64,000 bases of DNA, from NCBI GenBank assembly GCA_964387845.1, contig CAYLXA010000011.1, forward strand, positions 1-64,000, in the 5' to 3' direction. This DNA comes from an uncultured bacterium (GTDB taxonomy: Bacteria; Omnitrophota; Omnitrophia; Omnitrophales; Abzuiibacteriaceae). Numbering within the stretch: position 1 is the stretch's first letter; every line of letters starts with the position of its first letter. The position numbers were made by a program, and so were the translations under genes. Positions 1 to 49,825 of the stretch are shown here, piece by piece. Under the pieces are notes generated by a model. It was given only the letters and a program-made list of their open reading frames with translations. It was not told the DNA's origin and ran no database searches.

Positions 1-171
1 TTAATACCCGACTATTTTAACTCCAAGTGGTGCACTTGCTTATTGAACTTTTGCTAATACTTCACCTTATATTATTACTATTCAGTAATATAAATTAACT
101 TTAATAATACTTTTTATACCGTTTATATTGAAAAATGAGGATTTTTAGGTATACTTTTATCAATTCGCCAT

Positions 172-3100
172 TTGGAAGGAATGTCGAATTATCCTCCGGC
201 AAGAATAATGAGATCACAAATTATTTTCCTCAAAGTTGTCGCCATCACGCTTTGTTTTACATTTTCGGTTACCAGCACAATTGCCTATGGCGATTCGTCT
301 GTCATCATAGAATCTTTCAAGCATAATGCATGGCACGTCACGCCCGCATTTCCGGGGAATAAACCTGCCCAACTCCTTGATTTTGCCCGCAAAGCCGATC
401 TCGTTGTTGCCAGCGGACGTGCGGAGCTTCGTGCAAAAGAGCTGCAAGCTACAAGCCTCAAGCTGCAATCTGATCCGTCCGCGCTGAAAGTCTTGAAGCC
501 TGAAGCTGAAGAATCCCGATCTGAATTGAGGAACGAAGAAGGTGAACTTATGAAACGTCCTCGCGCGCGGCGTGACGCTCGGGAGGACGCCGCTGAGATT
601 GAGCCCGCAGTTGAAACTGAGGCGGTGGTCCAAGCCGAAGACGCTGAAATCAATTACAACCATTTTGCGCAAAGAATTATTAATGAACCGGTGGGGAAAT
701 TGCTGATCGATAAATCTATGGTTGAACAGATCGGCAAGTTAAACGTACCGCAATTCAAACAGATGTTTTATATGGATGTGGGGGCACTCAATGCGTATTT
801 CGTCTTGTATACAATGATCAAGGAAAATCGGGAATTAAATCCGGCTATTCATGACCATATTTTGACGGAAGAAGCAAAGGAAAGGGAAAAAACGGCCGCA
901 GCGGACAAGGCTGTTCAAGCCAAAGCCCAGGAACAAGAAGTTACTGCCCGAGATACAGCTTCAAAAGTGAAGTTGGTTGAGAAAAAGCGGGCAAAGTCTC
1001 AGAAGAAAGAAGCCGGTATAGATACGATTGAACGTGTACAGCTGGCGCCGGTTGAAGCCACAAAATTGACGCAGGGACTTTTTAGGCGGACGTTATCAAA
1101 ATATAAACAGCTCTGGAAACAGATCAGACAAAATAATCTGGATAAGAAGGACCGTGCGTTGGTCATGGCGACAAACATTATGTTGCTGGGCGGCGCTGCT
1201 TTCAGCACGATGCTTTGGGTATCGACTGATTTCGGCAAATATGCCGCGTGGTTTGGATATTTATCAACCGTTTTTTTGAGTGAAGCCGGCCTGCCGCTGT
1301 TTGTTAATTTTGTGGGAACGATCGATGAAATGGTTTTGGATGTGAAGGCAGTCAACGCGACCGAACGATTTATCGAATCACTTGATCGCTTTGAAGAATT
1401 TTTCCGCCGAATGCCGTTAAATCCGATCACGGAAAAAGGTTTGATCAAAGGAATCCGGAGTTTGCCGGCTGAGATTCAGCTTGAGTTGAAGAAAATCTCG
1501 GAAGGCAAAGATTGGGATTACCGGAATCTTGAGAAGTGGTACGAAATCCGAAGAAATCAGGTTATCCGGATTTTGAGAAAAGCGGATCTTGTTATTCCTG
1601 GCGAATTGGAAAATGCGCCGGCTTGGCAGGAGGAGGAAAATGGTGGCAACCCAAGGGTTCATCGCGGCAAACTTCTAAAATTGGTTTCAGAAGCGGTTAA
1701 TGATTCACGCAACGCGAATCGGGTCGAGGAATATCGGAAATGGGCGGAAAAATACAAGAAGGCGCGGACATTATTGCGTAAGATCAAGGGCTTGAATGAA
1801 GAAGAGATGCACTTGCTCGCTGTTCAACTCACCACAACATCGTTTTACGGGCATCCGGAACTTGAAAAACGTCTGGTACGCGCATTCTCGCGTATCGAGA
1901 AACGCCAAAAAAACGCGGATCAGGCGGTCTTTCTTGACCGGGAAGAAGGAAGCAGTTATACATTCAGTGCGCAGGGCCTTGTTGATTACGTGGCCGCGCG
2001 CTTCAGATTATCGGAATCAGACTATGATCTGGAAATTGATCCGGTGCCGCCTGATTTTGTTAATCAGGTCCGCATCCGTTCCGAATTGCGCATCTCATTT
2101 CTTCAAAAACTAGCAATTATCACAACGTTACTGACCGCATTCTTTATCCCGAACACATCAAAAGCTTCGACCATTCCTGTCGGATTTATGCCGCCCATTG
2201 ACAGCGCTTACCTTCATTCAGAAGGCGTCAGAGAAATCCGAGACGATGAAAAAAATGTTTGGCAATATCAAAAATATTCCAACCTCGATATTTTAACCGC
2301 CGCCGCAGTTTTAAATGCGACGAGAGAAAGTCCAAACGCTTCAGTTGATGCTGGTGTGATTGGCGTTTTCAGAAATGAAAGGAAACCGCTTGAGGAGCGG
2401 ATCTTGGCAGCGACCGTTTTAATGCTTAAACAGAAGGATTTTAAGAAAGAAGCGGGTGACTTCCTGGTCAAAATTCTGCATGACGAAACCAAGCCCGGTC
2501 TTGACCGTACGATGGCCGCAGCGGCTTACGCGCGGCTCATTGACGAGTCCTCTCATAAAAAAACACATAAATTTGCTATGGATTATTTGGTACGGGTTCT
2601 TTATGACGCCGACAAGCCTTATGCAGAACGTTTATATGCCGCGTCAGCCTATGCGTTGTTCAAAGCAGGAAGAGATTACATTGACGGGCCTAATTATAAA
2701 ACAACCATTGAATATGCCATGAGCATTCTGGTCAGCGCATTGCATGATGAGGAAGCGCCGGTTTCTCATCGGCTGATTGCCGCTGCTGCTTACGCCGGGC
2801 TTGATGATATGAATTTCGGCGATACGCATGAATATGCTATTCGGTATCTCAAGCAGGTTTATCAAAATCCGAAATCTCAATTTTCAAACCGTGTTACAGC
2901 TGCAGCGGCGCTGCTTGCGGCGGATGAATATGATTCAGAAGACAAATTTCTGGCTCTTATGCTTCGTTTGCCGTCGTTTGATAAAAAAGGAAATGTTGTT
3001 AATGAAAGGACGCCTGTTGATTTGCTTGATGCGATTCAGAACGGTGCGTTAACAGATGCCGGTGCGCATGCGGTAAAAGAGAAATTAAAAACCATACTTG

Positions 3101-6100
3101 ATGAAGGCCGTTTGAACCATGACGTGGGTCTTTTAGTGCGTTACGCGGAGGTATTGGAAAATCCGACCGCCGTTGATTTTGCGGAAATTGTGAAACTGGT
3201 TAGTGCTGTGCTGCCTGATGAAGAAAATCGACTTGAGTTTTGGTTTGATATCGCCAAGAAAGTTCAAGATCCGGAAAAGTTTAATTTTAATTCTTACGTC
3301 TTAAAAAATCTTCTGACCGATCCCGTTCTAGATCCCGCTCAGGTCCCCGATCAGGAAATCATGGAATTCCTGATTAAGAATCATCCCGACCAAGAACTGC
3401 GCAAGCAGTTGAAAGTTCGCATGAAAGAGTCGCAGTGGCAAATGGTTAAGGGGACGCAGGTGGTATACCTTGCGCTGGTTTTTATGGTGGGTGTCGGAAT
3501 CAGCATCCAGCAAATGAAAGCCCGCCGCCGTTCCGAACTCAGAAGTATTTTGATTGAATTGTGGAATTCAGTCCAAACTATTGCACGTGATCCTATTTAT
3601 GGCCCGTCGTATGCGATTTGTTTCGGTTTGATGGCTTATATGGTAATTAAGTTTGGGCCGAGACGCGGCAGTTTCTTCCCGGGAAGTTCGCGGAATATAG
3701 AAAGAATGATCCGCGCAAAATTCAAGAATGCATCTCCATCAGATTTAGATCAAGCCCGGACGATTGTCAAAGAACTTCGGGATAAAATCGAAAAAAACCT
3801 GGAACGGCCGCATTTCGAAATACGCTATGTGCTTCCTGCGATTATTCAAAGTGCAAACAGCGTTGAGCAATTGAGAAAGTTTGTGGAATCCTTGGGCGTC
3901 TGGAAGGATGCCGGATGGTTTGATCGATTAATTGGCGGAGTTCTGCCTTTATCTTTGGTTGGACGCCTTGGTGAAGCACCTCTTTTAGTCGGAAATCCTT
4001 ATGAAAAGCCGGCAATTGAAAAGGCGATGAAAGGGATTGCCCGGGCTATTCAGAGCTCCGATGAATTCCGAGAAGGGTTTGAAACCGTTGTCATTTTCTT
4101 TGAAAAATTGAAGCAGGCAACTGCAAGAAAAAAATATTTTCGAAACGAAAGTATTATTTCTCCTCAAGTTGCTTGGGAAGAACTGCTCCAGAAAGCGCAC
4201 CAAATTCGGATGCAGCACGGCGATTTTACCGTTTCTTTTCAGCCGGAAGAGCGGGAGATCATTAACAATCGCTACACTGACAAAGTTCTGCAACACCAAG
4301 TAATTTCTGTCAATGAACCGAGCGTGGCTTCTGCGCGTTCCGTCCCAACTCACAATAAAATGCCGGGAACGTCTATTGATGGGAAAGTTGGGACGGCTCA
4401 GACTTCCGATGAAAATTCGTCAGGTTCTTCAATGAAAGTCAGGGCCGAATTGCGGCAGGCGAGCAGCCGCATGCGCGCCAAGCAGGAACGTTTATTTACC
4501 GAGCGCGCGGCGAGCCGGCGTATTGCAAGAATTGACCGATGGTTTCAGCATTATCATGATGATTATGACATGAACTGGAACCCCGAATTTTTTGCGAGTA
4601 AGCACGAAACATTCCTGGACCGTATCAAAACACAATTGCGGGATTTTGAAATCGAGAACGAAGCTATTGATATCGCGATAGAACAATCCATGTCAATTTT
4701 AATAGCGGGCGTTCCCGGCGGCATCATCCGCGCTTTCCTCAAGCGTTTTACGAACATGGTGCATCGCCATATTTACGGCCCCGTGGCGGTAGAAGAAATC
4801 AATGACCGCATGCGGCATTTTAAAGAAAGAATTGATAGAAGTCTTGAATCCGCCGCCAGCCTCGATGAAAGGCGCCGCTTGATGAAAGGTTACCGCTTAA
4901 AGCACGGCTATCTTTGGATAGACAATGTGAGGACAAGTTTTGAGGAACTTCCGGTTGATCATTCTACCGCATCTACCGTGAAAGTGATCGGCCCGCGTGA
5001 AATGAAAATCCATCAAATTGCCGGCTACTTCGAAAATATTTTGCACCGCAAGAGAGGATTGCTGACGGATCAAAAAGACCATGAAATTCTCAAGTTTCTT
5101 GTCGGCCGTTTAACGGATTCTGACCCTTGGGTGGTAAAGGCGGCAGTGTGGGGGATTAACCGTATTGCGGACCGGATGGATCCCGTGCTCAAACAATTTA
5201 TTTTGGAGCGTTACTATGAAATTCTGAGCGGCAATCACAGTGAAGTTGCCCGGGGCTCTATTGCACGGTCCATCCGTGAAGTTTTTAACCCGCAAAGTTT
5301 GGATGTCGCACTTGAGATGTTGAAAACGGAGCAAACCGAATGGGTGCAGACTTACCTCGTTGAGGTCATTCAAACCATTGTGAGCCAATCCGATAAAAAA
5401 TCACTCCGCTACAAACATTCCCGCGACATTATCGAGCAGCTGCTTGAGAAGGCGGTCGGTGATCCTGACGCAAAAAGATCGCACATCATGCTGCGCGTCG
5501 GAAGCATTAAAGCATTGGCCGAGCTTTTATGGTATGACCCTGAAGTTTTGGACCGCTTGAAAGAAATGGTTTTAACCGAGCCGGATTCTACCATTCAAGA
5601 AGCTGCAATGTGGGCACTTGCAAGATTGCATGTGGCAACGCCGGAAGGGATGGCTCAGATCGATTCGTTGCTAGAAACTTTGACGGCATATCTGGAAAGC
5701 AGTCATGCAGGCCGAAAAAACGTTTTCTTAGAACAATATGCCAGACAGCTTCTTTTTTGGCTGCAGCGGCTTTCGTCCAATCGAGATCTGAAAGCAAAAA
5801 TTTTATCGATGAAGCGTACGAATCCTGATTTTTCTTTGACCGAGAAAATTATTTTAGGCGCACTGAACCAGATTGAAAAATATACAAAGAGATTGAAACT
5901 GCTGGAACATGCAAATTGGATTTTTGAGTTGTTCCAGAGTGCGATTTTTAGGCGCGCCCGCTCAGGCTCAGCCCGTACATTAACAGCGTATCATGACCGA
6001 TTGAAAGCACAGGCCAAACGTGACGCGGTTTATTTCAGCGGTCGCGCGATGAATCCGGTTATTTTACTCGACATCGATGCGATTCTTCCGAAAGAGGGCG

Positions 6101-9100
6101 ATGAAGCCGCAAAAGCATCTGAATCCGACCACGTTTTCGATATTTTAAAATCGTTTATGGATAGAGGCTGGAGCGTGGTCGCGACAGACCGGTATCGCGA
6201 AGAGCGTGATGCAGCTCACTTCAACGTTGCCCAGGGCGCCGAAATGAAATTAAAAAGCAAGGTGCTCAGGCAAGCCATCAAATTTTTGGCGTCAAACCGC
6301 CCGATCCGTATTCCTTCAAAAGACTGGTCGCGGGGCAAGCGGCATCAGCGCATGTCCGGCCTCTTGGTTCCTGTTCCGGACGAACCGATTGTCGTGCTTG
6401 TACACGGGCCGGAACTTTGGATGGTGAAAGACATCATGCCCGGCACTTTTTCGGGAATCGTATCGGTTGGTGATTATAAAGATGCTTCTAACGGTGTCTA
6501 TTTAGACAAACTCATTGACGCCATCGAAAAGAAAGCCAACGGCCGGATTGTTCAGCGTGAACCGTCACGTTCTGAGCTGCGGCATGGGCCTGAAGATTTT
6601 GTCAGAGACGAAACCGCGCGAATGGTTCGTGAGCTGGTCGGCACTTTCTACAAAAAATCTGTTTATCCTTTCGCGCACGAAATCGACAAAGGCAATATAC
6701 GCATTGAAGATCAAATTTTAGAGGAAGCGGCCCAGGCGGGGCTTTTCGGCCTCGCGATTCCGGAAGAGTTTGGCGGCTCGGGCCTCAGCCCTATTTTAAA
6801 AATCATTGCCGACATCATCGGCTGGTATATCAATCCTTCCGTTGCGCTTTCGATCGGTGTTCACAATAGCGTTGTCAAAGGGCCGATTCAAGATTACGGA
6901 ACGGAGGAGCAAAAAAAGAAATATCTCACGAAACTCGCGAGCGGTGAATTGATCGGCGGCTATGCGCTCACAGAATTGGAAGCCGGGTCCCAGGCATTGA
7001 GCAAGCGGTTTCCACTCCAGACGACCGCTGTCCCCGTGGAAGTCGACGGAAAACAATACTACAAACTAAACGGAACCAAACGGTTTATCACGAACGCCCG
7101 TTTTGCCGGTGTTTTTGTGGGTTTTGCGATGCTGGGTGACGAGCGAAGAGTATTTATCATTGATCGTGACTTGGAAGGTGTTTCGGTCGGAGAGGACGAG
7201 CAGAAAAGCGGTTTAAAAGGTTCTTCGACCGCGGATTTAATTTTGCAAGACGTTTTGGTTCCGGCTGAAAATCTGATCCCGGGAGACGGGATCAAAATCG
7301 GCATGTCTACCATGAGCCAGGGGCGCCTCAGCATCGCCGCAAGCGCTTTGGGCGGAAGCATGCGGATTTTTGATGATACGCTGGAATATTCGAAATTGCG
7401 CAAACAATTCGGCGGGCCAATTTGGCAATTCGGCGGCGTTAAGCAAACTCTGGCGGAAATGGCCGCGGATCTTTACGCGCAGGAGTCCGTTGTTTATGCG
7501 GTCGCATCTCTGCTGACCGAAGGCAAAGTGAATGCGGCATTTGAATCGGCGGTTGCCAAAGTTTTCGTGACGGAGAAATTTAACCACATTGCCCAGAAGG
7601 GCGTCAAAACACACGGCGGCGCCGGTTACATTTCGGATACGCCCACGGCGCGCATCGGCCAGGATGCGATTGTTACTGAAATTTTTGAAGGCATGAATGA
7701 TGTGCTTTATTCGAACGTGATTGCAGCCCTCTATCTTAAGAAATTGATGACGGAAGGCAATCAGGTGCTGAACATCTCGGATTACGGCCAGTTTTATCCG
7801 GAAATCCAAAAACTTTCGAGTTTAATCGGGCAAACCGGTAAAGTCATTCTCGGAAAATTCGGAACGCTCACGCCGGAGAATCAAGATGAGTACATGGCAT
7901 TCGGGAAAATGGCCTCCGAATTTTACGCAATTGTGTCCGCAGTGCGCAGGACCCGGAAAATAACATCAGAAATTAATCCGGATGACCCCAAACTGAAGCA
8001 TTTTTTGGATGTCACACGGCTGGTTGTAGCGAGAGGCACTAAACGGATCCGCGATGAGGCGTCTCATTTTGTAGATCCGGATGTGTTCGGCGTTTCTTCC
8101 GACCAGCGTAAGTATTTTGAATTAACCCGCGGCATTGCGGAACATCTCGTTGTCAATCCGCCGAAACGCATTGTTGAATTCAACGCCTCAAACGAAAGTC
8201 AGTCAAGCCGCGCCGAGCTTCGTCTCGATCCCGTTTATCTTGTCGATTTGACAGTGTTTGGCTTGCTTGCCATTTTACCGTCTTGGTTTGCGCTTAAACT
8301 GACAACCGAGCGCTATGCTAAGCGAACGATCGATCAGCTATATTCGCCGGCGGTTCAAGAAGAGATGGATGCGAATCGTTCTTTCAATGTCAATTTTTTA
8401 ACATTTTTTTATGACCGGGCAGTTCATTGGGTCCGGTTTCTTGTAATATCATTTTTGCACGGTTTTAGTGCATGGGTAGCCAGCTATTACGCTTTCGCCA
8501 TGTATTATCCGGCGGCTTCAATTTTTTGGCCTCTTGTTGCGGCTGCGGCTGCATTTGGCGCTTCCGGTGTTTCTTTATGGATTCGCGACAAAAAGCAGGT
8601 GCGGCAAAAAATAACTGTGGCTGCACAAATTCCGGCCAAGCAAATTCACGGAAAGTTTGAGCTGAATTTTGATTTGGTTTTTGGCTTTGATTTACGCGAA
8701 CTTTTAGACGGTAAAACAGGGGAAGAGCAAGCGCTTCAAAATTTACGGGCAAAAGTAGAAGAGCAGGTGGAGAGGATCGCCGCAAACAAGGGCGCCGTTC
8801 CCGCCGAGGTGGGAAAAGTTTTGGTTCCGGTGACGCCTGAAAGCTTTGCGAGCACAGGACCCAATTTCAAAGTGGAGGGCCTTCGCGGCCAGTTTACAGT
8901 TCGCATCCCTCGAAGCAATATCAATACTATGCACTCTTTTCCGCTCAATGTTACGTCCGTCTATTTGGGCGGCCAAAAAATCGCGGTCGGCACCGTGTTT
9001 TTCGAGAAAAATAAAGATGCGCGCTCAGAGTTGAGGTCCGAGGGTGCAGCAAAAAGTGCTTTTTCGAATTTCTTAGCGAGTGTGCCGGAAGATTCTGAAA

Positions 9101-12100
9101 AATGGAAGAGTTTTTTGCGCGAGCAGCTAGCGCTTTTTGCAGCCGAATGGGTTAAGCTGCCAGGGGAATTGCAAAATTTTTTCCCGGAAGAAACGCATTT
9201 ATTTCAGGAATTTACGGCTGATAATATTCCGGCGGTCAATTTAGACAATTTCTTTAAATTAGCTGCCGTGCGCGATGCCGTGGTTGATTTTATGCCGAAG
9301 CTTAACCAAAGCAGCTCTCTTCCGCAAAATGCCGAAGCCGTTCAGATCCCGGGTTTTAACGGTGCGCTTCTGGATGGCTGGGTGATTCGCGCGGCTGACA
9401 GCAAGCAAGAAAATCATCCGGCGTTTCTGATTTTGCCGCCATGGGGCGATGATATCTCAAAATACGGAAAGCTCGCCGAACTTCTTCATCAAGAGTTTCC
9501 ATCTTTTCATGTGATTGGTTTGGATTACACCAAAGATCCAAATCTCGAAACCATTTTGAATACCGGCGGAATCGCAGAAAGTTTTGATATTGAAGCGGTG
9601 ATTCGCGCGCTTTCCAGATTTTCCGATTTGAAGATTGATCCGTCCAAAATCACGGGCATCGGTTATTCGATGGGCGCTAATACTTTGGCGATCCTGCAAA
9701 AGCGCACCGGGCTTTTGTCTCATTTTGTGCCAATCGGGCTGCACGACAGTTACGCCTCCGTGCTTGCCGGCTATTATGAGAATGTCCATATTCCGCGCAT
9801 TGCAAGAATCGTTACACGCCGGGGCTATTCATTCATTGATTGGACTGACCCAATGATACGAGAGCATGCCAAGCGATTATTGATTGAAGCCAGGCTTCGA
9901 ATGAACCAATTTACTATCGCAAGAAGGGAAATTCCTGTTAAGCCGGAGGATGATCCGTTTTTAGATTTGGCAGAAACCGCATCATCGCTCCAAATTCCGG
10001 TTCATTTTGTATTTGAAGAGGAGTCTGATCTGTTACAGGAAAGCGTTCGTGATTTTTACCGCGCTCTGGCAGGGCAAATGAATGAATCAGGCCGAACGGC
10101 GCAATACAACACCTATCCCGGAAAGCACAACAAGATTGATCCGGCATCTTTGGTCAGCGATCTCAAAACTTTTCTGACCTCTCGTTCCGAATTGACTTCG
10201 GCTCGAGCGGAGCCGAAGACTATTTCGGCATCATCGCAGAGCGCGATGATGTCCGAATTGCGGAAGCAAAATCATTTTATTTTGTTTGTGGCTGGGAGCA
10301 TTTTGTTTTGGGCGGGCTGCTTAATGACGGAGCAAAAACCTGTCAGCGAAATGCCCGCGGAAACGCCAATTGAACAAATCGCCGAAACTTCCGAACCGGT
10401 TACAAACGCACCGGCCGATGATATAAGTGAGCCTGCCGAGATTCAGAAGCAGCCGCGCGCACCGCCCAAAAGTGAATTTGAGACTTTGCTTGAAGCTTTA
10501 GAAACAGGAAATGACGACGAGCGCTGGGATGCCGCCAAGACGCTCAGCCGTTCCGCCAACTCTGCCGCAAGCGGCACATTTTTAAAAGCGCTTCAGGATT
10601 CCAATAGTTTGGTCCGCCGCGAAGCCATTATTTTCTTCCGCTATCACCATGATCCGCGAGCACCGAAAGTTTTGATCGAGCTTTATCGCAAAGAACTCGA
10701 TTTGGGCATTCGATCCGACATTGTCGAAACATTGGGAATTTTGCAGAGCGCCGAAGCCGTTTCGTTTCTAATCCAACGGATCAAACGGGAAGACGGCGCC
10801 GCTTTCTATGTTTTAAAACGCGCGTTGGTCCGTATCGGCGTTCAAGCGATTGAGCCGCTTATCGATGCGATTCGCTTTGAATACAACAAAGAATTGGCCG
10901 CTAAATATGAAGAAACCCTTCGGGAAATCTTCAGAAATCCGGACGCTGCCGAACAGCGCAAAAAAGCGGAGAAACACTGGTACGAAGCCGTCCGCCGCGC
11001 CGCGCTCGGAATTACCAGCCGTTCAGAGCTTCGTAAATTTCACGAACCAAAACCGCAAGCAAGCGGCGTGGACGCGGGCATTTATATTGAAGGGTTAGAG
11101 AAAGTAATTCGGGCGAATCGGTTCAGCGCGCTTCGCTATGACCGAACGAAAAAGCGCTGGGTCATGACTTCCATTTTGATAGATGGAAAGAAGCGCAAGG
11201 GCCTTCTGCTGTCTAGGAAGCAACTCGATGGAGTTAATCTTGCTTTTAGTACGCTTCATCAAAAACTACAAAAGGAAATGACGGAAAAGTCGAATGCACG
11301 CATCATTTTTGTTAAAGGTTTGATGCCTATATTGGGAAACCACATGCCTTGGGTTCAGCGCCCGGCCGGCCTGAGCGGTTTTTCGAAGCCGGATTTTATT
11401 CTTGACCGCAATGCTGCTTACAATCCTCTGGCTTTGTTGGATCAATTTGAATATGAAATCCGGCGTAAGCGCTTGATGGCCGGTCAATTTTCTCCTGCGG
11501 AGAAAAGAGAATTAATCAGAAACCCAAACACTTTTGATTTGCGCGTTAAATTCAAGCAGGTTTATCTGGAAGCTCATGCTCAGTTGATTCAGGATAATGT
11601 TATAAATTCCAGAGATGAGCTTTCGTTCTACGATTCAACCCAGAGAACGCGCCTGCTTGAGCTTGTGATTTTGCAAGCTGCGCAGGAAGCGACCCAAGTT
11701 CGTTACCGGTCTGTCGAAAACGCTTTAAAAGCACTTGATGAGGCAGCCAAGGATGGAAATCATTCAGGACATCAAGTCGCAATTGGTATCTTGGCCTTGC
11801 ATGCATCTGACATTGCAGCCCGATTAATTAAAAAATCCGATAATGAGTCAATCAAGATCGCCGCACTGGACTATATTGCATCGGCGCTTATTGATCAAGA
11901 TACAGCTTCCCCAGCAATAGAGATTACTGGTGGCCTTCATCATGAAATCCGAAATATTCTAACCAATTCTAAAAACCCCCGGCTTAAAGCTGCCGCACTT
12001 CAACTTTTCACAGTCTTGATTTATGTTCAGCTAGTAGATTCGAACGAGAAGCTTAATGCGCTTGAATATCATTATGCCAATCTCGAACTGGTGATCAGAA

Positions 12101-15100
12101 GCCTGATTCCAACTATCCGTCAAATGGCGCTGACGGAGAAGAACGCGCTCTTAAGATCTCATGCCATTATTTTCTTTCTCGCTCTGTCTTTGCGGTATCC
12201 TCAGTTCAGAGGAAGCCGAAGGACGTTAAAACGCTTAGCGCCCGAATTGGAGCGGTATGTGCTCGAAGGGAAGGATTCCAACATGACTCAAACGGGTATT
12301 TTAGTTCTTGAGCATCTTTGGCGTCAGTTAGACAAAAATCCGGAGCGCTTCGAAACATTTATCAGCCGGTATATTTTCGGAGAAAACCATGCGCCGACCG
12401 GAATTCGGCGTACTGAAACTTATTGGGCGGGCAAATTAGCGCACTCCGAAATCTCGGAAAAGATGCCGACTCTGGACCGGATTCTGGCTAACAATGATCA
12501 GTTATCTCGTTTTCTCACTTTTCTTTCCGTTATGCGGCTTGCTTATCCTTATAGCATGATTAATGGTAGTTATGAGCGCCCGATTGCTTGGGCTAAGAAG
12601 AACCAAAAGATTTTTAAGCTCGACGAGCTCCGCATTGCGTTTGTCAGTGAATCATACCGCCGCCATATTATTTTTACGGAAGACCAAAGTCTTGCACTCG
12701 AAATAAAATTCCCAGGCGAACGCGCTTCAAGCGGCGATGTTTCGAAAATTCACGTGACATTGGCCGAAAAGTTGCGGCAGCAGCCTAAGGGTGAAACGGT
12801 GGTCAGCGAACCACTCTTTTTTATAGGTTTGAAAGGGTTATTCAATCTTTATGGCCCCCGGGAAACCTCGATTGAATATAAAGAATTTCCTTTGGGAATT
12901 GTGGGGTTCCGGTATCAAGACTCGAAACGTTTGCGTAATGTGCTTGAAGATAAAGAATTGTGGCAAGCATTTGTTGAGGAAGCTTATGGGCCATCGGACA
13001 AGTATCAACAAAAGGCCTATGTGCGGATTGCTGCGGATTTAATTATTTTTGCACTCAAGATTCATGAATTGGGTTATCAGGCCAGCACGCGCCGCCTAAC
13101 GGATCTTCACCTTGAAAATTTTGCGCTGTTGCCCGACGGCCACGTTTTTTCCGTGGCTGATTTCGGAATTTATTCCCGTAGCGGCAGCCGTTTAACCAAA
13201 TTCCGTAAAAGAAAAGAAACAAGCGGCCTGCTTGCTGCATTAACGGCTTACAAAAGCAGTCTCATTAGCGCTTGGGACAATCCGACATTTGTCATGGAGG
13301 TCGTTGACGCTGTTTTGGTTAAACTTTTAACAGGCGTTACCGATCCGGCAGAAAGAACAGAAATCATTCTGCGTGTCTTTGGGGAAGTGCGGGATATTTT
13401 TGAAAAAGTCGGCATTTCACCGCTATTCGAGGATGCGCTTGTGCGGGCTTGGGATGTTAATCAAGAGCCGGATGGATATGAAGTCCGTCAAAAAATTGCA
13501 AAATCCATCATTTCCAGATCGGTTATCGCTATTGGAATCGCATCCGATGCGTGGTCTGCGCTTCGATACGACAAAGATCAAGAAAGATTGATTACATCAC
13601 CGCTTCCGGACGATCTTGTGCATCGATTCTGGGATCATCCGGAATTGTTGCAACCGCTAGAACCGGTATTGCTAAGTGATAAAGAAGTTAATCTTCTCGA
13701 TAAAGCTTTCAAGCTTCTGCCTGAAGTGGATCGAAACCAGTTTACGTCGGATCCTAATTCTATGATCGTGTTAATGAAAGGAATGGATGCGCACATTGCA
13801 GAATCAACGATTGATTTCAAAAGATTGACGAACCCGCACGCCTATCACGACTTGGTGTCACCGCGTTTCTTTTTTGACCAGCGGCTGATCAAAGACCCGT
13901 TTGAATTCATGAAAATACTTCACAACGAGATCAAACTGCGGAATGCGATTCTTCAGAGTTTAACCGAAGATGAAATCGCGATGCTAAAAAACCGTCATTT
14001 GCCGGCTGAGCTTCAATCGAAAATCATGAAAAAAACACAGGAAACCAGAGATTTGCAGTGGGACACTTACTTTCGATCAGCCGGAAAGCAAGAACCCAAT
14101 CAAGAACAATTAAGTCTTTTGGAGGACCTTATTGTCTATGGTGCGCAGGATCATTTGCATAAAACATTCGAGTCTCCCGCAGAAGCTTTGTTGGCATTAG
14201 CAAAATCATTAGGAGAATTGAAAGGCGCTCAAAAGAAACGAACTCAAGATTTTCTATTTTACATTCACAACGAAATTTTATCTTTGATTCTGCTCAATCC
14301 AGATGCGGACTTAGATTTAAGAATATCGGCGGTTGTCTATGAGATAGAAAAGGCCAAGTTAGAATCGTTTGCGCTTTTGACTGCCGAGCCATTGGCACGG
14401 CATTTGGAGCGTATCTACGACCGGCATAAAAACGTCCGGCTGCGTGTTGTAATTCTTCGCTTCCTAGCAATTGTTCATGAGCAAGTTGAGCGGGAGATGA
14501 GAGATAATTTAAAGTCAGGGGACAATTTAGTTAAAACTCGTTACGTCGTCGAATCGATTGCCTGGAGGATGGCAGTCGGCGTTTTGAAAAACAATAAAAG
14601 CAAACGTGTCGAAAAGGAGATCGTTAAACTTTTGCTGCAGCTTTTACGGCCTTATGCCGCGGTCTCTCAAAAACCGAATCATGGGCAGTTACGTCTGCTT
14701 CTTGAGGAGGCTGTGATTTACATAAACCAGAATATCGAAAAAGATCCTTCAAAGGAAAAAAACAAGCTGCTTGCCCTGGCAATTTTAAGCAGGCAGATTC
14801 CGATTGCAAGCGACTATTTGGAAGCTGCGCTATTGCGGTATATTTTCGATTCAGATGACATTAAAGGAATACGGATGCGAAAGTCTGGCTATCCGGCGAG
14901 CGATGCTATTCAGCCTTTTGAACAAAGCATGCCCACGCTTATTCAAATATTGAAAAACAAGCAGTATTTAGCGCGTTTCATGGTTGCGCTCAGTATTTTG
15001 CGTGAAGCTTTTCCGTACCACGTCCCCAATTCGCATGATTTTAATGAAGACCTGCTTGAAACCGTAGAAACCAGTGGCGCCGTGCGGCTGAAAGAGCTCT

Positions 15101-18100
15101 TAATCGCGCCGCTTATGCATGAATATTCAAGCCACTTGGTTTCCACAGAGGACGGCCGCAATGTTTTGCGGCTGGTGATTCCGGGCGATTCTGTGCGGCA
15201 TTTTAGTAACCATCTTCGGAAAAATCATGTAGGCAAAAGAAATTTATTATTTTTTATTCCCATCCTCGGCGTCCCATTTTTGTATGGAGCTCTGGATTCC
15301 CATCGACTTTCGGGGTTTGCGGGTTACCGGGAACGCGCCAGTGAAGGTTTGACCATGAAAGAAATCAGAAGGCGTGAAATGATGAATGATCGGATTCCAT
15401 CGTTGGTCAGGACGATCTTGACGCACTTTGGCCAGAAGTATGATGCATCGGCGCTTCATGAAGCATTGGTTCGTCAGGATGTCAATCAGATCACAAAACT
15501 CATCTTCAGCGATGAATATTATCAAGATTTCAAGCAATGGCTGCTCAATTATATGCGGAACGTTTTTCATATGGAAGAAAGCGAAGTTCCGGATGCCTTC
15601 CGGCGTGCTTTAAAACAATACTTTGAGAAGAAAGAATCGCTAGGCCGCACAGAAGCAGCCGTAAAAAAATCAGCAGAAGGAAGCGACGCTCAATCAAAAT
15701 CCCGTTCAGAGCTCAGGGCAGGTGAGTTGTCCGCGGAAGTCCAATTGGCCAATGAGATCACCAAAGCCGTCACAAATTTTGCATTGTGGAAATCATCGGA
15801 ACACAAAATGTCGGTCTCTCGTCAGCAAATGCAAGGCTATAGAGATGCGCATCGGGAAGCGGATGCTTTGGTTAAGGCCGGAATCAAAACTTTGTTACTT
15901 TCCAGGGAAAGGGCAAAGCTCATTCAAGCTCGAACTGCAGTTCAACAGGCTATGAACCAGAGCGGCGTGACGGCAAAGGCAAAGAAAAGATACGAGTTTT
16001 ATATTGGGTTGCTCAATCAAGCCACCGAAAATCGTTCCGTCCCGACTCACAATAAAACGCCGGATCAGACTTCCGTTGAATATCCTCGCAATTCTTCAAT
16101 GAAAGCCAGAGCCGAGTTGCGTTCGAATCAAGCGTATCTTTGGAAATCGAAAATTACATTGGAATTGGCAAGCCCGGCCGGGAAGCCGGACGCTCCTAAA
16201 CGGTATATATTTGAAATAGAAGGCCGCAAATTCATGACGTTCGATGATCCTGATTCGGCCATTGAAATTGTGGGCGAAAGAGCGACCGATCTTGGTGTGC
16301 ACGATCCTTTTCTCAGTATTATGATCACCGAATTGCTGCCGTGGATTTTTGTTGAAAGCTTCAAAAATAGGAGGGTACGCCAACCAGACGGAAATTTTGC
16401 GCTTCAATTTCCGGAACTTGATTCCGGAGAAAAAGATATATTGGAAAGCGAAGTGCAGGTTGCTTTTGGTATTGGGAGTCAGCCGAGTTATGTTGCGTTT
16501 GGCCCCCGATGGTATCGCTTACCCGAGCGCGAATCGATTAATCAGATTGTCAATCAGGCCACCGATAGTTTTGCAGGTGATGATTCAATCGAAAAGCGTG
16601 CAGTGCCGGCTTTGGTGACTTTGGTCAAAGTTTTGAATGACGAAAGCCGAAGCGATGTTGAAACTTACATCGAACAGAAATTTGGTCCGCATGAATTCTT
16701 AAAACGTATGCTGACTTCCGAGAGAGTTACAAAAAACACTTTTTTTGATTTTGTCCGCCGTAATTTATTTTTGGAGCGGATCGGTGAAAAGTGGTTTCCC
16801 TACGGCCTATATACAGATACTAGGCGGTCTGAGCTAAGGCATGATTTTCGCTTTCTCCTAGGAATAGAGCGCGAAGAAGAAATGCAGAAAATCTTCGACA
16901 AGATTAAGCGGGGAGATTCCAACGACATCGAGCAAGCCTTAGGTTCCTTGATTGATTTTATCGGTACGATTCCCAATTTTTTAGATGACCGAAAGTGGGC
17001 GGAATTAAGGAAGTGGATTGCCCGGAATGTGGTTGGCAGCATCAATGTTTCATCTTTTAATACAGCCGGTATTCAAGATTTACTTATCCGTTTTTACAAT
17101 ATCCTGCCGGGCCCTACGACATTGGCTCTGTCTGCTTCGCTGGATGATGAAACCGAATTTGGTGAGCGCATATTTATATTAACTTTCTTATTAGCGGGTA
17201 TTCAAGAATCCGAAAACATAGCAAAGGTTGTATTGCGCAATCGTGTTTTTCAACGAGAAGCAAGCCGGCCAAAAACCGATAATGAAGCCCAGCTTTTTAA
17301 TCAAATTCACCAAGCAATCGATAGAAAAATTAAAGATCAGGCTTCGCCTAGCCCGGCTGCCGGGGAATTATCCGACCCACGATCTGAGCTTCGGATTGCG
17401 TTTACGGATGAGCTTCATCCGGAATTGTTAAGCAGGGAATTTGCAGACGAAAATTCGATCCGAAACAATTTAATAGAGGTTATGAGCGAGCCCAAGACTC
17501 GTGTGGAACTGTTGGGAATTAAAACAGGCGAGTTCATTCAGCGCACGATGGGCAAGATGCAGGTTGTTTTCGAGAAAACCGGCGAACGGGTCGATTCCCT
17601 GACGGGTGAACATGTTATAGAAATCGAATTTAATGTGATTGCGACAAAAGTTCATACCGAGTCCGGAACTATCGAAGCGCGAACGAAACCAAACAGCCGG
17701 TTGTTTGAAGGGCTAAATGCCGGTATCGTGCCGGAAATTAAAATTCGTTTTAACACGGCAATGACGAACGGGATTCGTGCGGTCAATGCGCGCCACGGGG
17801 AAATGGACGAAATTTTCGCTTCTCAAGTTCCGGATTTGGCGAGCGGTTTGGAACGTGTCGGACCCATTGCGGGCCATGATCTTATTTTCGGTGAGGATGG
17901 ATCGCCGCTTTTTGCGGAATATTTTCTTAAAAGATTCGGCGTTCTGGCCGTCGTTACGAGTTCACAAGCTGAAGAAGACTTTTTAGATCCGATCCGGGAT
18001 GACTTACAAAACGGGGAAGTGTTGATTGTCGCTCAAAGTTTTGAAGAAGCGCGCTTGGAACTTAGGAAAAGGGGATTTACGAATCAATTATTGCTTGTTT

Positions 18101-30167: not shown

Positions 30168-30689
30168 ATGAAGTTGAATCAAAAATTATTGTCAGTGTTT
30201 TTATTATTCGTGTTTGTTTTTGGATTGGCCAAGGCGGGTTTTTCGGCTGAACAGAAAATCGCTTATATCGATATCGGCAAAGTGTTCGATGAATACGAAA
30301 AAACCAAAAAGTTTGACCAAGAACTTCAGGAAGAAGGGAAAATCAAGCAAAAGGAGCGCGATGAAAAGGTATTGGCGATCCGAAAGCTGAAAGATGAGCA
30401 GGCTATTTTGTCGGATGAAAAGAAGAAAGAAGCCGACGTTAATATTGAAAAGAAACTCAGAGAGCTCGAAGAGTTTGATCAATCAATCGGGCGCGAACTA
30501 AATGCAAGACGCGACAAGGTTGTTAAGGAAATTTTTCAGGATATCGACGGGCTTCTCAAACAATACGGAGAGCGCAAAGGTTATGACTTTATTTATAACG
30601 ACCGCGCACTCGTGTACCGCAATCCGAAATATGATAAGACCGACGAAGTGCTCAAAGAATTGAACGAGTCGTATAAGAAGAAAAAGTAA
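30168..30689 (+). CDS. skp: periplasmic chaperone Skp/OmpH
   Basis: Signal peptide plus a Lys/Glu-rich coiled-coil body; position between bamA and the lpx genes. Confidence 0.85.
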   Translation: MKLNQKLLSVFLLFVFVFGLAKAGFSAEQKIAYIDIGKVFDEYEKTKKFDQELQEEGKIKQKERDEKVLAIRKLKDEQAILSDEKKKEADVNIEKKLRELEEFDQSIGRELNARRDKVVKEIFQDIDGLLKQYGERKGYDFIYNDRALVYRNPKYDKTDEVLKELNESYKKKK

Positions 30690-32050
30690 TGAGTGAACAC
30701 CAGAAGACCATTCGCAAGCCGATTTCCTTAGAAGGTAAAGGGATTCACTCCGGGAAATTAGTCCATATTTCGCTGAAACCGGCGCCCGCCAAAAGCGGTA
30801 TCCGTTTTACGCGGACGGATATTGACCGCTCCGAACAGGTTGCCGCATCGGTGGAAAATGTTCATCAAGATCACGGCCGTCAGACGTCAATCGGCACAAA
30901 GCGATGGAAAATCCTGACAATCGAGCATCTGATGGCGACGCTGCACGGTTTACAGGTCGATAACTTATTAATAGAAGTCGACAGCGAGGAATTGCCGGCA
31001 TTGGATGGAAGCTCCAAGCTTTATGCCGATGAGATATTGAAGGCCGGCCTCGAAGAGCAGGATGCCGTTCGCGAATATCTGAACCTTACGATCCCGATAT
31101 TTATTCAGGGGAAAGACTACTCGCTTGCGCTTTTTCCGGCTTCTGAGTTATCAATTTCTTACACGCTCAGCTACGGTCATTCCGATTTGAGCGAACAATT
31201 TTACACAACCCTCATCACACCCGAGATTTTCCAGAAAGAAATCGCGCCGGCGCGCACGTTTTGCCTCAAGGAAGAAGCTGAAATGCTCCGCAAAAGCGGT
31301 TATGGAAAAGGTGCCGACTTTGACAACACGCTTGTTTTCGAGAACAATAAACCGATGAATAACCAGCTTCGGTTTCCAAACGAAGCGTGCCGTCACAAAA
31401 TTTTAGATTTGCTGGGTGATTTATATTTGGTCGGGCAGCCGTTTAAAGCGCATGTGATCGCTTGCCGCACCGGCCATGCACAGAATTACGAATTAGTCCA
31501 AAAGCTTTATGATTTACGCCTGACGGCTGCGAGGTCTGTGCCCGCTGCTTGCAATCAGCCGATTTCGGAAAGCGGCAAATGCGGCCAGGCCATGATTAAA
31601 AAGATCCTCCCGCATCGCGATCCATTTTTGTTTATCGATCAGATTCTCGAAATGGAACCCGGAAAGCGGATTGTCGGCATCAAGAAAGTGAAGCCCACCG
31701 AATTTTTCTTTCAAGGGCATTTTCCGGGCCATCCCGTAATGCCCGGCGTGTTGATTATTGAAGCGCTTGCACAGTGCGGCGGATTTTTGATGTTGTCGAA
31801 GCCGGAAAATCTCGGAAAAATTGCATACTTTATGACTATCGAAAAAGCAAAATTCAGAAAACCCGTGTTTCCCGGCGAGGAGCTTCGGTTAGAAGCGGAA
31901 GTGATCCGCGACCGTATCCGCACCGGCGAATGTTCGGGCAGGGCCTATGTCGGCGAGAATTTGGTCTGCGAAGCCAGCGTGCGCTTTGCGGTTGTGGAAG
32001 CAAACACCAACGGGAGCCCTGAATCCGAGCCGAGCATTAAAGGTGATTGA
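30689..32050 (+). CDS. lpxC-fabZ: bifunctional UDP-3-O-acyl-GlcNAc deacetylase / 3-hydroxyacyl-ACP dehydratase (LpxC-FabZ fusion)
   Basis: N-terminal LpxC (KTIRKPISLEGKGIHSG..., HxxxD zinc site) fused to C-terminal FabZ hot-dog (ILPHRDPFLFIDQI...GHFPGHPVMPGVLIIEA). Confidence 0.9.
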   Translation: MSEHQKTIRKPISLEGKGIHSGKLVHISLKPAPAKSGIRFTRTDIDRSEQVAASVENVHQDHGRQTSIGTKRWKILTIEHLMATLHGLQVDNLLIEVDSEELPALDGSSKLYADEILKAGLEEQDAVREYLNLTIPIFIQGKDYSLALFPASELSISYTLSYGHSDLSEQFYTTLITPEIFQKEIAPARTFCLKEEAEMLRKSGYGKGADFDNTLVFENNKPMNNQLRFPNEACRHKILDLLGDLYLVGQPFKAHVIACRTGHAQNYELVQKLYDLRLTAARSVPAACNQPISESGKCGQAMIKKILPHRDPFLFIDQILEMEPGKRIVGIKKVKPTEFFFQGHFPGHPVMPGVLIIEALAQCGGFLMLSKPENLGKIAYFMTIEKAKFRKPVFPGEELRLEAEVIRDRIRTGECSGRAYVGENLVCEASVRFAVVEANTNGSPESEPSIKGD

Positions 32051-49177: not shown

Positions 49178-49306
49178 ATGTTCGGCTGCCTTGACACTCT
49201 ACTTTCCTTATGATAATTTAAGCCCACTTTTTAAAAATCAAACTCATGTAGTTTGATTTTTAGCGTTAGTTTCCGGACGCTAAATTCCAAAAGGAGGGAC
49301 TTCAGC

Positions 49307-49825
49307 ATGGCAAAAAAGCTGGAAGAAAAGATTTTAGACGTTGATGCGAGTATGCAGGGAACGATCACATTTCGTGATCCTGTTAACCTGCGTATTAACG
49401 GAAGTTTTGAAGGCCGTTTGGATGTCCGAGGGAATTTGACCATTGGTGAAAATGCTAACGTGAAAGCCGATATCAGAGGCGATAAAATCTTAGTTGCAGG
49501 AAAAGTGACCGGTAATATCACGGCGTCTGCCAGTCTGGCGGTTATATCGCCTGCGGTGATTCGCGGCAACATTAAGTCCCCGATTTTCAGTGTTGCTGAA
49601 GGTTCCGTTATTGAAGGTCAAGTATCGATGACAAATTTACAAAATTTAGATGCCAATAGCACGCTGTCGTTGCGCGATTTAGCCCAGTACCTTGAAGTTG
49701 AGATGCGCGTCATTGAAGAGTGGGCGCGTGAGAAAAAAATTCCCGGCCGTCAAGAAAACGGCGAGTGGCGGTTTAATAAAGCCACGATTGATAAATGGGT
49801 GCAGGACGAAAAAGTAAAATTGTAA
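49307..49825 (+). CDS. bactofilin-domain protein fused to C-terminal excisionase/MerR-type HTH (HTH_17) DNA-binding domain
   Basis: SD AGGAGG then ATG 49307. Beta-helical bactofilin repeats (INGSFEGRLDVRGNLTIGENANVKADIRGDKILVAGKVTGNI…IRGNIKSPIFSVAEGSVIEGQV). C-terminal LSLRDLAQYLEVEMRVIEEWAREKKIPGRQENGEWRFNKATIDKWV. Confidence 0.7.
   Translation: MAKKLEEKILDVDASMQGTITFRDPVNLRINGSFEGRLDVRGNLTIGENANVKADIRGDKILVAGKVTGNITASASLAVISPAVIRGNIKSPIFSVAEGSVIEGQVSMTNLQNLDANSTLSLRDLAQYLEVEMRVIEEWAREKKIPGRQENGEWRFNKATIDKWVQDEKVKL

Follow-up and report, generated by a model that had tools for sequence, protein, structure and literature searches.

The window analyzed here, the first 64,000 nucleotides (nt) of contig CAYLXA010000011.1 (assembly GCA_964387845.1, forward strand), derives from an uncultured bacterium of the phylum Omnitrophota. 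It contains a giant modular gene whose product harbors one complete acyl-CoA dehydrogenase (ACAD), and a five-residue peptide, R-S/A-E-L-R, recurs along the protein and flanks the ACAD on both sides. The DnaB encoded in the window is 70 to 77% identical to the DnaB of more than 40 Omnitrophota metagenome-assembled genomes (MAGs), versus 45 to 52% for other phyla, and, as judged from such sequence comparisons, the giant gene is encoded in an Omnitrophota genome. The gene and its motif sites are located as follows.

208 to 18249, forward strand: giant modular gene of 18,042 nt, encoding 6,013 amino acids (aa) from the ATG at 208; the open reading frame (ORF) is open from 172.
418, 517, 2077, 3529, 4441, 6568, 8209, 9022, 10183, 11020, 15703, 16108, 16825, 17380, 18163, and 18217, forward strand: the 16 motif sites.

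No stop codon interrupts the giant ORF over its 18 kb, and NCBI contains the same protein of 6,013 aa (P0121), encoded on a contig of 98.7 kb. At its N-terminus, the product has a signal-like segment; it also comprises about 10 hydrophobic segments, HEAT_2 repeats in two modules, a single ACAD, and a duplicated kinase-like module; Pfam recognizes the ACAD and HEAT domains only, the remaining pieces being Pfam-dark. Sixteen copies of R[SA]E[LM][RT] punctuate the ORF, 14 of them exact matches to R[SA]ELR versus 0.04 expected from composition, and R[SA]ELR occurs neither in the five other frames nor in any other gene of the 64 kb. Cut at the motif, the chain falls into pieces whose lengths range from 18 to 1,561 aa, most of them lying between 135 and 709 aa. 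The codons for Arg, Ser/Ala, Leu, and Glu vary freely between copies. Because this variation is synonymous at every position, the constraint acts on the peptide rather than on DNA or RNA, and an RNA- or DNA-level element was rejected on the same grounds. Internal translation starts were also rejected as a general explanation, given that Met lies near only 5 of the 16 copies.

The ACAD fills exactly one unit between consecutive motifs, bracketed by RSELR and RAELR. This unit (6568 to 8208; 547 aa), taken as a motif-delimited piece of the giant-protein translation, encodes a full four-domain enzyme, whose features and immediate surroundings are listed below.

4441 to 6567, forward strand: module before the ACAD (709 aa, HEAT repeats), starting with RAELR at 4441 to 4455.
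6565 to 6582, forward strand: upstream motif S-R-S-E-L-R, N-terminal limit of the ACAD module (core RSELR at 6568 to 6582).
6610 to 6948, forward strand: ACAD N-terminal alpha-helical domain (module residues 15 to 127; PF02771).
6961 to 7254, forward strand: ACAD middle beta-barrel domain (module residues 132 to 229; PF02770).
7282 to 7728, forward strand: ACAD C-terminal alpha domain (module residues 239 to 387; PF00441), with R278 and F281 conserved.
7744 to 8169, forward strand: fourth, all-helical C-terminal domain of the VLCAD/ACAD9/FadE type (module residues 393 to 534).
8170 to 8208, forward strand: polar, low-confidence tail IVEFNASNESQSS leading from the ACAD to the next motif (residues 535 to 547, predicted local distance difference test [pLDDT] below 50).
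8209 to 8223, forward strand: downstream motif R-A-E-L-R, C-terminal limit of the ACAD and start of the next module.
8233 to 8295, 8419 to 8499, and 8506 to 8577, forward strand: three hydrophobic, transmembrane-like segments of the module after the ACAD (Kyte-Doolittle).

Three Pfam families matched the module above their cutoffs, namely, Acyl-CoA_dh_N (PF02771; E 8.7e-27, 94.2 bits versus a cutoff of 22.9, profile positions 2 to 113 of 113), Acyl-CoA_dh_M (PF02770; E 3.7e-15, 56.3 bits versus 33.3), and Acyl-CoA_dh_1 (PF00441; E 1.2e-32, 113.6 bits versus 22.4). The top PDB sequence match was Thermus thermophilus 2z1q (E 1.1e-70), followed by Bacillus anthracis 3owa, ACAD9, and VLCAD. A preliminary description of this DNA had recognized an ACAD inside the giant protein, and these matches agree with it, an assignment to some non-ACAD family not being borne out. 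The best NCBIfam model, NF058590 (Bacillus-type FadE), covers module residues 8 to 500 with profile positions 18 to 538 of 586. The module reaches 312 bits, below the equivalog cutoff of 600, and on this profile evidence it is a divergent relative of Bacillus-type FadE, not an equivalog. An AlphaFold2 model of the module, computed from an alignment of 40 homologues, has a mean pLDDT of 86.4 and a pTM of 0.88, with pLDDT values below 50 in the last 13 residues only. Residues 1 to 7 are modeled as coil, helices continue to residue 529, and the secondary structure agrees with the three Pfam domains. Foldseek aligned 531 to 562 columns of the model to 2z1q, 3owa, 3b96, 7s7g, and 8phe (TM-scores of 0.80 to 0.84), whereas the 380-aa tetrameric ACADs cover ~63% of it (TMq of about 0.63). 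We assign the fourth domain, an extra helical region of about 150 to 180 residues in this class, on the basis of the NF058590 coverage, the helices extending to residue 529, and the full-length Foldseek matches, and profile and model together place the module in the VLCAD/ACAD9/Bacillus-FadE class. Enzymes of the VLCAD class are homodimeric and membrane associated, and their FAD (flavin adenine dinucleotide) sites are completed across the dimer interface; the whole giant chain carries a single ACAD module.

The limits of the module are as sharp as its identity. The first ACAD helix starts 5 to 7 residues after the upstream RSELR, and homology begins at the equivalent of residue ~18 to 23 of the free enzymes of ~595 aa; it extends to at most 14 residues before RAELR, the intervening tail being predicted as disordered. 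The first hydrophobic segment downstream begins 3 residues beyond RAELR. Several statements of the preliminary description are thus confirmed: the ACAD fold is complete and lies between the fourth exact RSELR of the protein (in SRSELR) and a cluster of hydrophobic, transmembrane-like segments. Its coordinates (6655 to 7745) were roughly right for the three-domain core but missed the fourth domain and the true limits. Its view of the arrangement as an oddity, on the premise that canonical ACADs are soluble homotetramers, does not hold for the VLCAD/ACAD9/FadE class. The module shares with VLCAD (3b96, 2uxw, and 7s7g), ACAD9 (8phe), 2z1q, 3owa, and Bacillus FadE the succession of N-terminal alpha, beta, C-terminal alpha, and C-terminal helical domains, with the catalytic Glu at the same FEG(T) position and 26 to 38% identity. 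It differs from these dimeric enzymes in being internal to a 6,013-aa chain instead of a stand-alone protein of ~590 aa, in scoring at half the NF058590 cutoff, and in the substitutions D142Q, Q347K, R365Q, and T376M. The GC content at third codon positions (GC3) is 0.548 in the module versus 0.544 in ordinary window genes, with no trace of recent transfer, and a foreign origin of the ACAD by composition was rejected. As a separate observation, the ACAD, the preceding HEAT module, and the lipoprotein/HEAT module described below have GC3 values of 0.52 to 0.55, compared with 0.41 to 0.49 for most other modules of the giant gene.

The catalytic and FAD-binding residues were inspected in an alignment of 115 homologues of both size classes, in which conservation reaches at least 90% in 62 columns. 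The relevant codons are the following.

7687 to 7692, forward strand: catalytic Glu-Gly codons (GAA GGx), module residues E374-G375 and ORF residues 2506-2507, in IFEGMNDV.
7606 to 7608, 7660 to 7662, and 7693 to 7695, forward strand: codons of the changes Q347K, R365Q, and T376M, respectively.

FEGMNDV, encoded at nt 7684 to 7704, holds the catalytic Glu, as the preliminary description had proposed: the GAA codon at 7687 to 7689 aligns to the catalytic Glu of solved ACADs, and E374-G375 aligns to the E-G of IFEGTNEI/IYEGT in 2z1q, 5ol2, and 5lnx, which is invariant in the 115 homologues. The module also keeps the T/S of LTExxxGS, the T of FITN, R278, F281, and the GGxG motif. It retains 55 of the 62 conserved columns, the seven changes being D142Q, A245G, L249M, Q347K, R365Q, T376M, and E378D, whereas the homologues depart at 1.8 of these columns on average and at 6 at most. 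D142Q, Q347K, R365Q, and T376M fall in columns that are 100% invariant in the homologues, and the earlier statement that the module carries the FAD motifs is thus mostly but not entirely accurate. D142Q (nt 6991 to 6993) lies in the middle domain, where LTELEAGSQ corresponds to the ACAD TEPxxGSD motif. By the MCAD/UniProt annotation, the equivalents of Q347 and T376 are probably FAD contacts, an assignment that we take as a lead only. Overall, its sequence is that of a largely canonical, though divergent, ACAD, whose activity is likely but not assured.

These departures raise the question of whether the ACAD is a pseudo-enzyme or scaffold, with the fold kept for structure or binding and devoid of flavin dehydrogenase activity. 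ACAD9, which serves as a complex I assembly factor, provides a precedent, and ACAD9 structures are among the top fold matches of the module. A number of departures exceeding that of every one of the 115 homologues, the low NF058590 score, the failure to find any orthologue closer than about 41% identity, and the lack of electron transfer flavoprotein (ETF) or beta-oxidation genes in the window would all fit a loss of function. Yet seven changes barely surpass the homologue maximum of six, the entire fold is predicted with high confidence, and the catalytic Glu-Gly, R278, F281, and the T/S of the flavin-ring pocket motifs are all retained within the 55 preserved columns. We consider a pseudo-enzyme improbable on balance.

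The motif that delimits the ACAD has further properties of its own. Comparison of 39 motif sites revealed that the Glu and the final Arg are invariant and that the fourth position (x) is free, and the flanks of these sites display no clear linker signature apart from a small residue at -1. In the giant protein, one motif stands 5 residues before the C-terminus; closely spaced doublets, 15 to 33 residues apart, also occur. Several hydrophobic segments directly follow a motif and resemble signal peptides of individual modules, one of them with a lipobox. Examples of signal-like starts are RSELR-ISFLQKLAIITTLLTAFFI and MSELR-KQNHFILFVAGSILFWAGC; the latter contains the lipobox, followed by a long disordered tether, and by sequence looks like a classical lipoprotein precursor. 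The textbook-looking lipoprotein signal peptide located mid-ORF, at 10246 to 10323 (lipobox MMSELRKQNHFILFVAGSILFWAG, followed by C), contains the SELR motif in its n-region and is succeeded by a long acidic, Pro-rich tether and then by HEAT repeats. Only two motif copies share extended flanks, which belong to a longer repeat, RSVPTHNK(M/T)P...SSMK(V/A)RAELR, found at 4339 to 4455 and 16036 to 16122.

The same punctuation was found in relatives of the giant protein. An exhaustive HMMER search with its largest module (module 10; 11020 to 15702, 1,561 aa) retrieved 86 relatives plus the giant protein itself. A word-index homology search with module 10 found nothing and thus misses this fast-evolving family, and a contig scan with this module returned no relatives. 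Motif copies exceed the numbers expected by shuffling in P0122 (4,156 aa; 13 copies versus 0.7, including RSESR, NSESR, and KSEAR), P0162 (2,101 aa; 5 versus 0.6, including RSEVR and RSEMR), and P0174 (2,036 aa; 4 versus 0.5, including RPEAR). In P0122, KSEAR and NSESR flank the block homologous to module 10, and the methyltransferase and metallophosphatase Pfam domains of this protein each occupy one motif-bounded unit. In P0211, from a Candidatus Omnitrophica MAG (GCA_028718145.1), residues 511 to 1272 are 34% identical to the HEAT module that precedes the ACAD, over about 790 columns; the homology begins at a motif (RSETR versus RAELR), fades at the next (RSEAR versus RSELR), and is followed in P0211 by a non-ACAD module. 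The gene adjoining P0211 (2,523 aa) carries 10 copies of RSE[MVTL]R. Thus, R-S-E-x-R marks homologous module boundaries in other large Omnitrophota proteins from independent genomes, and the modules have been reshuffled from one relative to another. In stand-alone homologues of about 1,000 aa, the motif occurs at background density. Ordinary neighbor genes in four loci lack it, except for one chance-level match in each of two genes of locus L136. The P0211 locus itself (JAQUML010000026.1, positions 1 to 14772) carries three large same-strand genes arranged head to tail, encoding 2,439, 2,523, and at least 1,590 aa; all three contain RSExR, and the first two share a unit "...WTP(A/V)RSEMR...". 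From its sequence, this locus is best described as a modular array split over several genes rather than fused.

Neither a protein search nor a metagenome scan found an ACAD orthologue, free or embedded, above about 41% identity, and stand-alone excised orthologues, which the preliminary description suggested seeking in relatives, were not found above that level either. TEEQKKKY, a word common to ACADs in general, dominated the metagenome scan with the ACAD module; among the matched loci listed, each of the 12 longest enclosing ORFs is stand-alone, with 615 to 724 aa. Because the nearest ACADs are about 41% identical at best and stand-alone among the loci listed, the cassette appears, from these comparisons, to be lineage specific and inserted at a motif junction.

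A trivial origin of the arrangement would be an artefact, i.e., a chimeric assembly or separate genes fused by a sequencing or gene-calling error, the ACAD then being an ordinary stand-alone gene. The module is indeed gene-sized, its GC3 equals that of ordinary genes and is higher than that of most other modules, and its nearest relatives are stand-alone ORFs among the loci listed. Against such an error, none of the 16 junctions in the uninterrupted 18-kb frame contains a stop codon, the junctions share a peptide motif encoded by varying codons, the same architecture recurs in independent assemblies from other samples, and the identical protein exists in NCBI. We regard an artefact as scarcely credible.

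Other modules of the giant protein showed further features. Module 10 contains an internal duplication (24% identity over 617 columns, E 2e-22) that was uncovered by pairwise alignment, a self-BLAST of the whole giant protein having listed nothing; the duplication is ancient. At the junction of the two copies, SRSVIA (nt 13513 to 13530) stands in place of SRSELR and, by its sequence, looks like a decayed punctuation site. The region at 12229 to 13488 is the only module common to 84 relatives, and its predicted fold has a pLDDT of 86. Foldseek matched it almost entirely to protein- and lipid-kinase-like structures (Vps34/PI3K, Src/Abl, SelO, COQ8, and ROP kinases; E 4e-6 to 1e-3), with low TM-scores (0.25 to 0.34), along with a few siderophore synthetases (SbnC and IucC) and ABC-type proteins (Rv3197 and MSMEG_1954). 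It carries D-L-H-L-E-N and A-D-F-G motifs (at 13096 to 13122 and 13153 to 13167). A search of this kinase-like module against PDB sequences gave no significant match; judged by the predicted fold, it probably represents an atypical kinase-like domain missed by Pfam. Module 8 (9022 to 10182), two units after the ACAD, appears alpha/beta-hydrolase-like by eye, with GYSMGAN at 9661 to 9681 as a GxSxG nucleophile elbow; neither Pfam (Abhydrolase_3, E 0.24) nor PDB sequences (no significant match) supported this idea. The rest of the window encodes Gram-negative housekeeping functions, including BamA, LpxC-FabZ, LpxA/I/B, DnaB, ribosomal proteins, and LeuRS. Two of the other ORFs combine distinct domains. 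That at 30689 to 32050, within a BamA-OmpH-LpxC/FabZ-LpxA-LpxI cluster, fuses LpxC and FabA/FabZ-like dehydratase domains (lipid A/fatty acid synthesis), and that at 49253 to 49825 (190 aa) unusually joins a bactofilin domain to an HTH_17 DNA-binding domain at its C-terminus.

Giant proteins with many transmembrane segments, HEAT repeats, and embedded metabolic enzymes have been described in Omnitrophota as "Archaeovorins" (West-Roberts et al. 2023, bioRxiv 10.1101/2023.11.21.568195), and a second preprint defines a "multi-enzyme metabolic cluster" class of giant proteins (bioRxiv 10.64898/2026.06.07.730766). In their texts, both suspect cleavage and state that the cleavage points are unknown, with no mention of a boundary motif, and they set size thresholds of a gene of >90 kb (2023) and a protein of at least 10,000 aa (2026). 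The ACAD is not mentioned among the domains named for these giants in the 2023 text or in the 2026 text and one of its supplements. The protein studied here resembles Archaeovorins in phylum, N-terminal signal-like segment, hydrophobic segments, HEAT_2 repeats, embedded enzyme domains, and large Pfam-dark stretches. It differs in being 5 to 25 times shorter (18 kb; 6,013 aa), below both thresholds, and in the C39 peptidase, S8 peptidase, and SecA-like domains, for which Pfam gave no match in the giant protein, even at E ≤ 1 for its dark modules. Because it is smaller and lacks these domains, we do not class it as an Archaeovorin; we see in it a small-scale relative of the multi-enzyme giants of the phylum. 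A literature search for the R-S-E-x-R motif, or for "polyprotein" together with Omnitrophota, found nothing relevant.

Two further systems offer partial parallels. Tandem double-ACAD fusions of about 780 aa (P0001 and P0002) are likewise bacterial proteins with an ACAD covalently fused to other sequence, but they consist of two ACADs head to tail, as an intramolecular substitute for the dimer, whereas the giant has a single ACAD among unrelated modules. MARTX toxins release their effector modules through an internal cysteine protease domain. Like MARTX and viral polyproteins, the giant protein assembles unrelated gene-sized modules in one ORF with a short recurrent peptide between them, and the contents are shuffled among relatives; unlike them, searches detected no protease domain either in cis or close by, its modules include housekeeping enzymes of cytoplasmic type instead of toxins, R-S-E-x-R is not known to match any cleavage specificity, and cleavage is here putative.

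We propose that a whole gene-sized, four-domain ACAD was captured in frame as one of about 14 protein-sized modules and is possibly released by proteolysis, a reading to which we give an even chance. R-S/A-E-L-R would then be a putative processing site, most simply cleaved after its invariant final Arg. We infer purely from sequence that the motif may be a recognition site of this kind: its Glu and final Arg are invariant, a copy stands very near the C-terminus, doublets occur, and signal-like segments follow some copies. The giant polypeptide would behave as a bacterial polyprotein, in which modules starting with a signal or lipoprotein peptide would be exported, whereas the ACAD, starting with no such peptide, would be freed into the cytoplasm as a protein of ~61 kDa. 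There, it could form the homodimer that its class needs for FAD binding and oxidize acyl-CoA thioesters (or, in an anaerobe, reduce enoyl-CoA). The preliminary description had already considered a processed-out module, along with a regulatory or pseudo-enzyme domain, and the former is the better-supported half of that interpretation: the ACAD is one motif unit, its ends match those of ~595-aa homologues, and a 13-residue tail predicted as disordered closes it.

Several observations weigh against this proposal. Profile searches identified no peptidase family in the giant protein or in the 45 other ORFs of the window, a result that does not extend to a structure-level search of all dark modules. 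If the N-terminal segment is a real Sec signal and the hydrophobic segments are real transmembrane helices, some motif copies would end up on one side of the membrane and some on the other, which is awkward for a single protease, and the membrane topology, drawn by hand, is ambiguous. Transmembrane- or signal-like segments follow the motif at 4 of 54 sites versus 1.4 expected, a weak enrichment. The motif is absent from most other large relatives that share the kinase-like module and thus marks a subset of them. As for the enzyme, Q347K and T376M may weaken FAD binding, the departures from conserved columns outnumber those of any homologue, and the 64-kb window contains no ETF or beta-oxidation partner genes. 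The open frame through the ACAD is no sign of function, because a stop codon would also truncate all the modules downstream.

The chief alternative is an uncut giant acting as a membrane-anchored multi-enzyme scaffold, in which the ACAD works tethered, its dimer arises by the pairing of two giants, and the motif is a linker or docking signature (e.g., for the HEAT modules). About 10 hydrophobic segments and HEAT repeats within one chain favor such a scaffold, as does the failure of profile searches to find a protease in the giant protein or the window, and Omnitrophota giants have been described as membrane-associated multi-enzyme proteins. Enzymes of the VLCAD class are themselves membrane-associated dimers, VLCAD residing on the mitochondrial inner membrane. 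An interdomain linker is, however, ill-suited to a motif placed 5 residues from the C-terminus and to doublets 15 to 33 residues apart; the embedded lipobox signal peptide with its long disordered tether suggests a separately matured module, and an invariant E and final R with a free x resemble a recognition site. We judge a permanently uncut scaffold to be rather unlikely.

Extending the proposal of a released cassette to the relatives, an Omnitrophota clade might translate unrelated gene-sized proteins as a polyprotein, a "protein operon," with R-S/A-E-x-R cut by a putative Arg-specific protease. We advance this broader idea tentatively, with less than even confidence. Its products would include the ACAD, methyltransferases, phosphoesterases, kinase-like modules, and lipoprotein precursors, those with a signal peptide being exported and those without it remaining in the cytoplasm.

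The ACAD family is ordinary and enzyme domains in Omnitrophota giants have been reported before; the R-S-E-x-R punctuation is the interesting part. The case described here adds a clean, checkable example of a module limit, in which both limits of a cassette fall exactly on a conserved five-residue motif and match the ends of free-standing homologues. In relatives from independent samples, this peptide also encloses homologous modules as well as other enzyme modules. Should it prove to be a cleavage or docking site, it would provide a rule for dividing giant proteins into units to be modeled, expressed, and sought in metaproteomes, and the long-standing question of one chain or many products would become a direct experiment. 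If the "protein operon" is true, it would supply the cleavage points missing from the literature on Omnitrophota giant proteins and would allow their computational parsing into real products. Giant proteins of this kind recruit cytoplasmic, cofactor-dependent redox enzymes, a point that matters for the doubtful "extracellular" locations that earlier analyses gave to enzyme domains.

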